Source: Escherichia coli (lineage in GTDB: Bacteria; Pseudomonadota; Gammaproteobacteria; Enterobacterales; Enterobacteriaceae). From it: a stretch of DNA of 64,000 bases. A model generated the notes under the pieces. It worked only from the letters and a program-made list of their open reading frames with translations, made no database searches and was not told the origin of the DNA. Within the stretch, counting starts at the first letter, position 1; every line of letters begins with the position of its first letter. Location: NCBI RefSeq assembly GCF_003334305.1, contig NZ_QOWS01000026.1. One strand, given 5' to 3'. The position numbers and the translations under genes were made by a program. Of the stretch, positions 2,936 through 8,738 are shown in pieces.

Positions 2936-3970
2936 ATGAGTAACGCGATTACGATGGGGATATTTTGGCATTTGATCGGCGCGGCCAGTGCAGCCTGTTT
3001 TTACGCTCCGTTCAAAAAAGTAAAAAAATGGTCATGGGAAACCATGTGGTCAGTCGGTGGGATTGTTTCGTGGATTATTCTGCCGTGGGCCATCAGCGCC
3101 CTGTTACTACCGAATTTCTGGGCGTATTACAGCTCGTTTAGTCTCTCTACGCTGCTGCCTGTTTTTCTGTTCGGCGCTATGTGGGGGATCGGTAATATCA
3201 ACTATGGCCTGACCATGCGTTATCTCGGCATGTCGATGGGAATTGGCATCGCCATTGGCATTACGTTGATTGTCGGTACGCTGATGACGCCAATTATCAA
3301 CGGCAATTTCGATGTGCTGATTAACACCGAAGGCGGACGCATGACGTTGCTCGGCGTTCTGGTGGCGCTGATTGGCGTAGGGATTGTAACTCGAGCCGGG
3401 CAGTTGAAAGAGCGCAAGATGGGCATTAAAGCCGAAGAGTTCAATCTGAAAAAAGGGCTGGTGCTGGCGGTGATGTGCGGCATTTTCTCTGCCGGGATGT
3501 CCTTTGCGATGAACGCCGCAAAACCGATGCATGAAGCCGCTGCCGCACTAGGCGTCGATCCACTGTATGTCGCTCTGCCAAGCTATGTCATCATCATGGG
3601 CGGCGGCGCGATCATCAACCTCGGTTTCTGTTTTATTCGTCTGGCAAAAGTGAAGGATTTGTCGCTAAAAGCCGACTTCTCGCTGGCAAAACCGCTGATC
3701 ACTCACAATGTGTTACTCTCAGCACTGGGCGGGTTGATGTGGTATCTGCAATTCTTTTTCTATGCCTGGGGCCACGCCCGCATTCCGGCGCAATATGACT
3801 ACATCAGTTGGATGCTGCATATGAGCTTCTATGTATTGTGCGGCGGTATCGTCGGGCTGGTGCTGAAAGAGTGGAACAATGCAGGACGCCGTCCGGTAAC
3901 GGTGTTGAGCCTCGGTTGTGTGGTGATTATTGTCGCCGCTAACATCGTCGGCATCGGCATGGCGAATTAA
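2936..3970 (+). CDS. rhaT: L-rhamnose:proton symporter
   Basis: 344 aa [29 protein letters not shown]..., recognised as RhaT; GAGG Shine-Dalgarno 8 nt upstream. Confidence 0.96.
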
Positions 3971-4815
3971 TCTTTCTGCGAATTGAGATGACGCCACTGG
4001 CTGGGCGTCATCCCGGTTTCCCGGGTAAACACCACCGAAAAATAGTTACTATCTTCAAAGCCACATTCGGTAGAAATATCACTGATTAACAGGCGGCTAT
4101 GCTGGAGAAGATATTGCGCATGACACACTCTGACCTGTCGCAGATATTGATTGATGGTCATTCCAGTCTGCTGGCGAAATTGCTGACGCAAAACGCGCTC
4201 ACTGCACGATGCCTCATCACAAAATTTATCCAGCGCAAAGGGACTTTTCAGGCTAGCCGCCAGCCGGGTAATCAGCTTATCCAGCAACGTTTCGCTGGAT
4301 GTTGGCGGCAACGAATCACTGGTGTAACGATGGCGATTCAGCAACATCACCAACTGCCCGAACAGCAACTCAGCCATTTCGTTAGCAAACGGCACATGCT
4401 GACTACTTTCATGCTCAAGCTGACCGATAACCTGCCGCGCCTGCGCCATCCCCACGCTACCTAAGCGCCAGTGTGGTTGCCCTGCGCTGGCGCTAAATCC
4501 CGGAATCGCCCCCTGCCAGTCAAGATTCAGCTTCAGACGCTCCGGGCAATAAATAATATTCTGCAAAACCAGATCGTTAACGGAAGCGTAGGAGTGTTTA
4601 TCGTCAGCATGAATGTAAAAGAGATCGCCACGGGTAATGCGATAAGGGCGATCGTTGAGTACATGCAGGCCATTACCGCGCCAGACAATCACCAGCTCAC
4701 AAAAATCATGTGTATGTTCAGCAAAGACATCTTGCGGATAACGGTCAGCCACAGCGACTGCCTGCTGGTCGCTGGCAAAAAAATCATCTTTGAGAAGTTT
4801 TAACTGATGCGCCAC
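3967..4815 (-). CDS. rhaR: AraC-family rhamnose regulator RhaR
   Basis: ORF track gives 3967..4989; the 282-aa form starts at GTG 4815 (..[12 protein letters not shown]..) with GAGG SD; AraC-type HTH at C-terminus. Confidence 0.9.
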
Positions 4816-4888
4816 CGTGGCTACCTCGGCCAGAGAACGAAGTTGATTATTCGCAATATGGCGTACAAATACGTTGAGAAGATTCGCG

Positions 4889-5725
4889 TTATTGCAGAAA
4901 ACCATCCCGTCCCTGACGAATATCACGCGGTGACCAGTTAAACTCTCGGCGAAAAAGCGTCGAAAAGTGGTTACTGTCGCTGAATCCACAGCGATAGGCG
5001 ATGTCAGTAACGCTGGCCTCGCTGTGGCGTAGCAGATGTCGGGCTTTCATCAGTCGCAGGCGGTTCAGGTATCGCTGAGGCGTCAGTCCCGTTTGCTGCT
5101 TAAGCTGCCGATGTAGCGTACGCAGTGAAAGAGAAAATTGATCCGCCACGGCATCCCAATTCACCTCATCGGCAAAATGGTCCTCCAGCCAGGCCAGAAG
5201 CAAGTTGAGACGTGATGCGCTGTTTTCCAGGTTCTCCTGCAAACTGCTTTTACGCAGCAAGAGCAGTAATTGCATAAACAAGATCTCGCGACTGGCGGTC
5301 GAGGGTAAATCATTTTCCCCTTCCTGCTGTTCCATCTGTGCAACCAGCTGTCGCACCTGCTGCAATACGCTGTGGTTAACGCGCCAGTGAGACGGATACT
5401 GCCCATCCAGCTCTTGTGGCAGCAACTGATTCAGCCCGGCGAGAAACTGAAATCGATCCGGCGAGCGATACAGCACATTGGTCAGACACAGATTATCGGT
5501 ATGTTCATACAGATGCCGATCATGATCGCGTACGAAACAGACCGTGCCACCGGTGATGGTATAGGGCTGCCCATTAAACACATGAATACCCGTGCCATGT
5601 TCGACAATCACAATTTCATGAAAATCATGATGATGTTCAGGAAAATCCGCCTGCGGGAGCCGGGGTTCTATCGCCACGGACGCGTTACCAGACGGAAAGA
5701 AATCCACACTATGTAATACGGTCAT
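4889..5725 (-). CDS. rhaS: AraC-family rhamnose regulator RhaS
   Basis: 278 aa [44 protein letters not shown]..., recognised as RhaS. Confidence 0.95.

Positions 5726-8738
<3,013 letters not shown>

Follow-up and report, generated by a model that had tools for sequence, protein, structure and literature searches.

The window, that is, the whole stretch of 64,000 nt analysed here, contains the rhamnose locus of E. coli with the gene order rhaT/rhaR/rhaS/rhaBAD. Both rhaR (3967..4815) and rhaS (4889..5725) lie on the minus strand, flanked by rhaT (2936-3970, plus strand), which is convergent, and by rhaBAD (beginning at 6013, plus strand), which is divergent. The rhaS coding sequence comprises 278 codons and a TAA stop at 4891-4889, and that of rhaR comprises 282 codons and a TAA stop at 3969-3967; the RefSeq coding sequences of strain H15 and of K-12 MG1655 map exactly onto the latter. 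The rhaR gene is located directly downstream of rhaS, an arrangement that was checked in the window and in 21 relatives, and an untranslated spacer of 73 nt (4816..4888, minus strand) separates the rhaS TAA from the GTG codon at 4815. RhaR belongs to the AraC/XylS family: a cupin sugar-binding domain of the AraC type precedes two AraC helix-turn-helix units. Without L-rhamnose, the expression of rhaSR is very low. Strain H15 matches the window with 100% identity over the 1.9 kb from 3900 to 5800 and differs from it at 11 positions over all 64,000. Of 5426 complete E. coli genomes, 5412 carry at least 80% of this 1.9-kb stretch. RhaR of K-12 (b3906, NP_418342.2, 282 aa) is encoded by the same gene, with the same start codon and neighbours; compared with it, the RhaR of the window shows strain-level substitutions only, and two residues differ in the crystallised N-terminal domain (S/N and V/M).

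The minus strand carries an open reading frame of 340 codons that begins at 4989 and reaches its stop at 3967, as the initial annotation had reported, and the GTG at 4815 lies in the same frame, exactly 58 codons downstream of 4989. The 58-codon extension (4816..4989, minus strand) covers the spacer, in which 24 of the 58 codons fall, and the last 101 nt of rhaS including its stop codon, read one base out of phase. For a start at 4989, an overlap with rhaS of about 100 bp had been given; the overlap is 101 nt from 4989 and 17 nt from 4905. The initial annotation also described an ATG at 4989 and a second ATG at 4905. However, the codon at 4989 (4987..4989, minus strand) is GTG, and therefore the ATG at 4905 (4903..4905, minus strand, 30 codons upstream of GTG 4815), which is indeed present, is the sole in-frame upstream ATG and not a second one. 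The ORF listing behind the frame 3967-4989 shows M for any start codon. A further in-frame GTG is located at 4924..4926 (minus strand), 37 codons upstream of GTG 4815, and the first upstream in-frame stop is a TGA at 5047..5049 (minus strand), 78 codons before the GTG start.

The length of this open run was compared with that of neighbouring genes. In the equivalent H15 region, which has 56 complete annotated genes, the longest stop-free run upstream of an annotated start was that of rhaR (78 codons, followed by 59, with a median of 11), and no other gene there had an in-frame start beyond 25 codons upstream. A chance estimate from the mean of 16 codons suggests that about 0.7% of genes, or about 30 per E. 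coli genome, would reach 78 codons. The run is thus probably a local outlier of a kind expected genome-wide, which would need no special explanation.

Translation start of rhaR

In RefSeq, rhaR is 849 nt long (282 aa) and begins at GTG 4815 in H15, K-12 MG1655, BL21 and seven more strains; BL21 and these seven come from different lineages and sample the range of identities within the species. The K-12 record is NP_418342.2, and its ".2" suffix indicates that the protein record was replaced once. The long frame was compared with the NCBIfam RhaR equivalog models NF010025 and NF010027 (282 positions each), and profile positions 2-281/282 matched residues 60-339/340, with scores of 573.5 bits (cut-off 525) and 565 bits (cut-off 384) that both pass. 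Profile position 2 corresponds to residue 60, and therefore position 1 corresponds to the codon at 4815; the first 58 residues of the 340-aa frame were without a match in these profiles. In the Pfam search, AraC_binding was assigned to residues 80-210 and HTH_AraC to residues 243-284 and 295-334 (340-aa numbering), so that the first domain begins at residue 80, and nothing credible was found in residues 1-58.

The structural and paralog data pointed to the same codon. The chains of the RhaR N-terminal domain in PDB entries 5U93 and 5U9E begin MAHQLKLL (5U9E two residues further in), which corresponds to the codon at 4815 read as Met, and these constructs reflect the depositors' expression choice and not the native N-terminus. 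In the paralog RhaS, residue 8 was aligned with residue 69 of the long frame; RhaS residue 1 therefore corresponds to residue 62, three residues inside the RhaR start.

A scan of species-representative genomes yielded 39 loci, and the junction was aligned for 31 sequences, 28 of which, including the window, are from Enterobacteriaceae. At the aligned rhaR start, 25 of these 28 sequences have GTG and three have TTG, with GAGG or GGGG before it. In the window, the start codon (4813..4815, minus strand) occupies this GTG/TTG column, and the Shine-Dalgarno GAGG (4824..4827, minus strand), 8 nt before the GTG, occupies the position at which GAGG or GGGG is kept across genera. The calculated anti-SD duplex of GTG 4815 is -7.2 kcal/mol with good spacing, which is within the best 6.5% of the 20-mers of the region.

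Annotation, family profiles, structure constructs, the RhaS paralog and the 28-sequence comparison all agree with the earlier proposal that the conserved protein begins at GTG 4815 with a GAGG Shine-Dalgarno sequence. We consider it highly probable that rhaR is translated from GTG 4815 with this Shine-Dalgarno sequence, giving a RhaR of 282 residues, and that the upstream 58 (in fact 78) codons are non-coding in this frame; ribosomes would not be expected to start at 4905 in vivo. The start of rhaR is settled already in RefSeq and in the family models; the curated annotation is correct, and the finding is a known one. The supplements of the initiation-mapping papers INRI-seq and TRAINSPOTTER hold no entry for rhaR or b3906, and a full-text literature search, the reach of which did not extend to the original RhaR papers, gave nothing on the RhaR N-terminus. 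Among E. coli sugar regulators, lacI, cra and mlc have a fixed non-ATG start; the GTG start is near-universal in the species and is commonly regarded as a means of keeping regulator levels low (PMC11445065). Like these genes, rhaR has a GTG start; unlike them, it is the second gene of an operon, whereas lacI, cra and mlc are monocistronic.

Origin of the upstream open frame

An in-frame stop was found 2-17 codons upstream of the rhaR start in 25 of the 28 sequences, and in 13 of these 25 it was the TGA of a TGAGG Shine-Dalgarno sequence, located at codon -4. GAGG is separated from GTG by 7 nt in most genera and by 8 nt in E. coli (GAGG-TAGCCACG-GTG), where CGAGG and not TGAGG is present. With 7 nt, the TGA within TGAGG falls in frame as codon -4. 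In E. coli, the 8-nt gap and the CGAGG together remove this stop, and the frame then meets no other as it passes through the 73-nt spacer and into the rhaS 3' end, one base out of phase. Across the 28 sequences, the length of the rhaS-rhaR spacer ranged from 71 to 154 nt and fell in all three phases, partly via palindromic insertions.

Long open frames occurred in three members of the 28-sequence set: the window, the near-identical Escherichia sp. MOD1 (65 codons) and one Citrobacter freundii isolate, the open run of which (64 codons) is without an ATG. The Citrobacter freundii frame is an independent accident and is unrelated to the E. coli case. In the divergent "E. coli" genome E69, the spacer is 72 nt long, and this length difference of 1 nt shifts the upstream frame and places a TGA at -4. 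In two divergent Escherichia genomes, a rhaS cysteine codon is TGC and not TGT, which eliminates GTG 4989.

Variation within E. coli was assessed in the 10 strains. The 78-codon open frame, ATG 4905 and GTG 4926 were kept in all of them, whereas GTG 4989 was present in four and missing in six. The spacer part of the extension showed three amino-acid-changing and two silent differences in the rhaR frame, which are too few for a test and give no hint of protein-level constraint. Because the 58-codon extension lies outside all family profiles and 25 of the 28 sequences carry in-frame stops, we judge it to be non-coding in the rhaR frame and probably a lineage-specific by-product. The comparison thereby supplies an evolutionary reason for the long frame in E. 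coli and for not reading this frame as protein.

The rhaS-rhaR spacer

The initial annotation had noted that the ambiguity of the start could matter for the coupling of rhaR to rhaS. The junction gives no support to this idea, with an untranslated gap of 73 nt, no overlap and no unusual RNA structure in the spacer. Overlap coupling in operons relies on ATGA or TAATG start/stop junctions. Compared with such overlap-coupled pairs, rhaR has a gap and a separate Shine-Dalgarno sequence, and a likeness would arise only if ATG 4905, with its 17-nt overlap, were the start. No Rfam family was found in the E. coli spacer (the best match, on the other strand, had E = 9.6), and no promoter-like site was found between rhaS and rhaR. 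The one terminator-like hairpin, at 4920-4906, is weak and no more than chance would produce. Folding of the E. coli spacer was compared with that of shuffled controls and gave z = +0.15 (101 nt) and z = +0.69 (spacer plus start), which is nothing unusual. Because the E. coli spacer has no start/stop overlap, Rfam family, promoter or unusual fold, rhaR initiation is probably independent of rhaS translation and occurs at its own ribosome-binding site. Initiation would take place there 73 nt after the rhaS stop, without start/stop overlap.

The spacers of the other species share sequence boxes. Outside Escherichia and Citrobacter amalonaticus, an almost invariant AATCACCGTTTTTT is located about 13 nt after the rhaS stop, with an AATAAT box further on. 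The E. coli counterparts are a degenerate CTCAACGTATTTG (4878-4866) and AATAAT (4851-4846). The box of the other genera, TCACCGTTTTTTAC, resembles TCGACGTTTTTTAC upstream of E. coli rhaS, a likeness that prompted the idea of the spacer as a relic half-site of a RhaR/RhaS operator. A second likeness was noted between CGCGAATCTTCTC (4888-4876) and CGCGACCTTCTC (5961-5950), with a pattern that was defined after both copies had been seen. The idea was rejected as coincidence, as local alignments of each species' own rhaS-upstream region with its own spacer were at chance level (p = 0.42 for the window, and above 0.05 in 21 of 22 species).

An alternative that is compatible with a start at GTG 4815 was considered for the spacer RNA, namely that a spacer hairpin covers the rhaR Shine-Dalgarno sequence and GUG, so that the translation of rhaR needs ribosomes finishing rhaS, also in E. 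coli. In single-sequence folds, a recurrent pairing joined UCACCG to CGGUG of the start region, and the bases after UCACCG to the Shine-Dalgarno sequence. The first 45 nt of the spacer were then scored against the cognate region from -15 to +6 and compared with dinucleotide shuffles. In most genera, the cognate regions were more complementary than the shuffles, with z = -4.6 at the strongest (Atlantibacter), whereas the values for Escherichia were +0.2 to +0.9. Cognate pairs also outperformed foreign pairs in eight of nine non-Escherichia clades (Wilcoxon p = 0.008), so that in the other genera the 5' part of the spacer exceeds both shuffled and foreign sequences in its complementarity to its own ribosome-binding region. 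The opposite was observed in Escherichia, where the cognate pair was 2.75 kcal/mol worse than the foreign pairs.

The alignment-based measures were divided. By a column-wise count, 68.7% of the cells were paired, compared with 37-50% for slid partners, and the covariation score, likewise column-wise and from an unfitted MAFFT alignment, was 0.173, compared with 0.125 for shuffles and 0.05-0.10 for slid partners. By the more conservative measure, however, pairs changed on both sides were at chance level (7 versus 6.2 in shuffles, with 179 of 500 shuffles reaching 7), and RNAalifold returned no consensus structure on the plain MAFFT alignment of the spacers. In the window itself, the fold was not stronger than that of controls (z = +0.15 to +0.7), the 5' arm against the ribosome-binding region gave z = +0.38, and the motif that is conserved in the other genera is degenerate in E. 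coli. The data are thus suggestive of a start-masking hairpin in the other genera, and in the E. coli window such a hairpin is undetectable. We consider it improbable that a hairpin of this kind makes rhaR translation dependent on rhaS in E. coli. A broader reading, to which we give a low but larger probability, is that in many Enterobacteriaceae outside E. coli the spacer may act as a conserved regulatory RNA with a nearly invariant AAUCACCGUUUUUU box and an AAUAAU box; a long hairpin formed by these would hide the rhaR Shine-Dalgarno sequence and GUG and would set the RhaS:RhaR ratio or couple the translation of rhaR to rhaS. The E. coli version would have decayed, and this decay would also have opened the upstream frame.

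Longer forms of RhaR

Some bacterial genes use two functional in-frame starts. In infB and clpB, such starts give a long and a short isoform, and conservation across genera extends to both starts and to the residues between them. Like infB and clpB, rhaR has an upstream in-frame ATG with an open frame between the two starts; unlike in these genes, the upstream start and the residues after it are limited to E. coli and its closest relative and are without a profile match. A RhaR of 312 residues from ATG 4905, made in addition to or in place of the 282-residue form and coupled to the nearby termination of rhaS, was weighed on this background. The calculated masses are 32.3 kDa for the 282-residue form, 35.6 kDa for the 312-residue form and 38.8 kDa for the 340-residue form. 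The ATG is located 14 nt before the rhaS stop, it is kept together with the open frame in 10 of 10 E. coli strains, and RhaR was reportedly numbered as 312 residues in the original sequence paper and in later mutational work. The purine-rich AGGGAcGG before the ATG gives a calculated anti-SD duplex of -7.8 kcal/mol (bulged AGGGA-c-GG). However, only 1 nt separates the end of this stretch from the ATG, which is far from a usual spacing; its sequence is imposed by the rhaS codons that encode Q-G-R-D-G, and it is also the 3' arm of the small hairpin at 4920-4906. No RhaR profile matches the 30 extra residues and no other genus encodes them, with stops or frame shifts in 25 of the 28 sequences, and the three changing and two silent spacer differences show no sign of protein-level constraint. 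Weak initiation at ATG 4905 is conceivable from the sequence alone, yet it is unsupported, and we regard a 312-residue RhaR as very unlikely. For GTG 4926, the calculated duplex is only -2.4 kcal/mol.

Translation of the full 340-aa frame from GTG 4989 can be dismissed almost entirely: although it is the longest ORF and is found as a deposited protein of the vector pSCrhaB2 and of a few E. coli genomes, its GTG is without a Shine-Dalgarno sequence (calculated duplex +0.7 kcal/mol), lies 101 nt inside rhaS and is missing in six of 10 E. coli strains and in two divergent Escherichia genomes.

The rhaR start ambiguity is real in automatic annotation, and it is ordinary and resolved already. Public protein collections contain the K-12 RhaR sequence in each of the lengths 282, 312 and 340 aa. 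The 312-aa form is given in many deposited annotations and is carried, like the 282-aa form, by at least 1000 contigs, and the 340-aa form is carried by four. A preference for ATG or for the longest ORF still leads gene callers to a RhaR of 312 or 340 aa, which stands in these collections beside the curated one of 282 aa. The scientific value of settling this point is small and its practical value modest: in the long forms every residue number is shifted by 30 or 58, which can misdirect the design of constructs. The 340-aa sequence is also named as the RhaR of the rhamnose-inducible vector pSCrhaB2, and a 288-aa form also occurs.

Conserved boxes and palindromes in the rhaS-rhaR spacer

The spacer between rhaS and rhaR (73 nt in the window, 4816-4888) was compared with its counterparts in the rha loci of other genomes. 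In relatives (loci L006-L034, at approximately 2420-2500), the spacer contains two boxes, AATCACCGTTTTTT, which hardly varies, and AATAAT; these box-bearing spacers belong to Kluyvera, Silvania, Leclercia, Buttiauxella, Cedecea, Atlantibacter, and others. The counterparts of the two boxes in the window lie at 4878-4866 and 4851-4846, respectively. In the predicted folds, the AATCACCGTTTTTT box and its 3' neighbours were paired with the GUG start codon and the Shine-Dalgarno sequence of rhaR. Alignment-free and column-wise tests of the sequences were suggestive, although not conclusive, of such pairing between the spacer box and the rhaR start region. The E. coli copy of the box was degenerate and gave no signal in the pairing tests.

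In eight loci, the stretch between rhaS and rhaR carries inserted palindromes, which are either REP/BIME-like (GCCGGATG...CATCCGGC) or of another GC-rich kind; the loci are those of Citrobacter amalonaticus (L004, L009, and L033), Buttiauxella gaviniae and noackiae (L019 and L021), and Atlantibacter and C. freundii M21 (L022, L024, and L029). The insertion point has the conserved boxes on one side and the Shine-Dalgarno sequence on the other. These palindromes lengthen the spacer to 134-154 nt, which shows that large insertions are tolerated and that the spacer is non-coding.

Resemblance to the rhaS-rhaB regulatory region

The sequence CGCGAATCTTCTC (4876-4888, minus strand), with which the spacer begins, is similar to CGCGACCTTCTC (5950-5961, minus strand) in the rhaS-rhaB intergenic regulatory region, a site that we take to be part of the RhaS-binding region of rhaBAD. 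The pattern common to both had only two matches in the window, the very two sequences from which it was derived. Since the motif was not conserved in the other genera, the likeness was judged to be a coincidence.

RhaR lengths and neighbouring genes

In public protein collections, RhaR of E. coli/Shigella appears under one shared name in four lengths (282, 288, 312, and 340 aa), and the 288-aa version was found in Shigella dysenteriae and E. coli alike. At its 3' end, rhaR is convergent with rhaT; the two genes overlap by 4 nt (3967-3970), and the stop codons of both lie within the palindrome TTAA at these positions. In the annotation of E. coli strain H15, which carries the equivalent region (L050), RefSeq lists the MFS transporter gene yihN (3905547-3906812 of the H15 record) as a pseudogene interrupted by an internal stop and a small hypothetical gene near yihA/yihI (3894368-3894534) as frameshifted.
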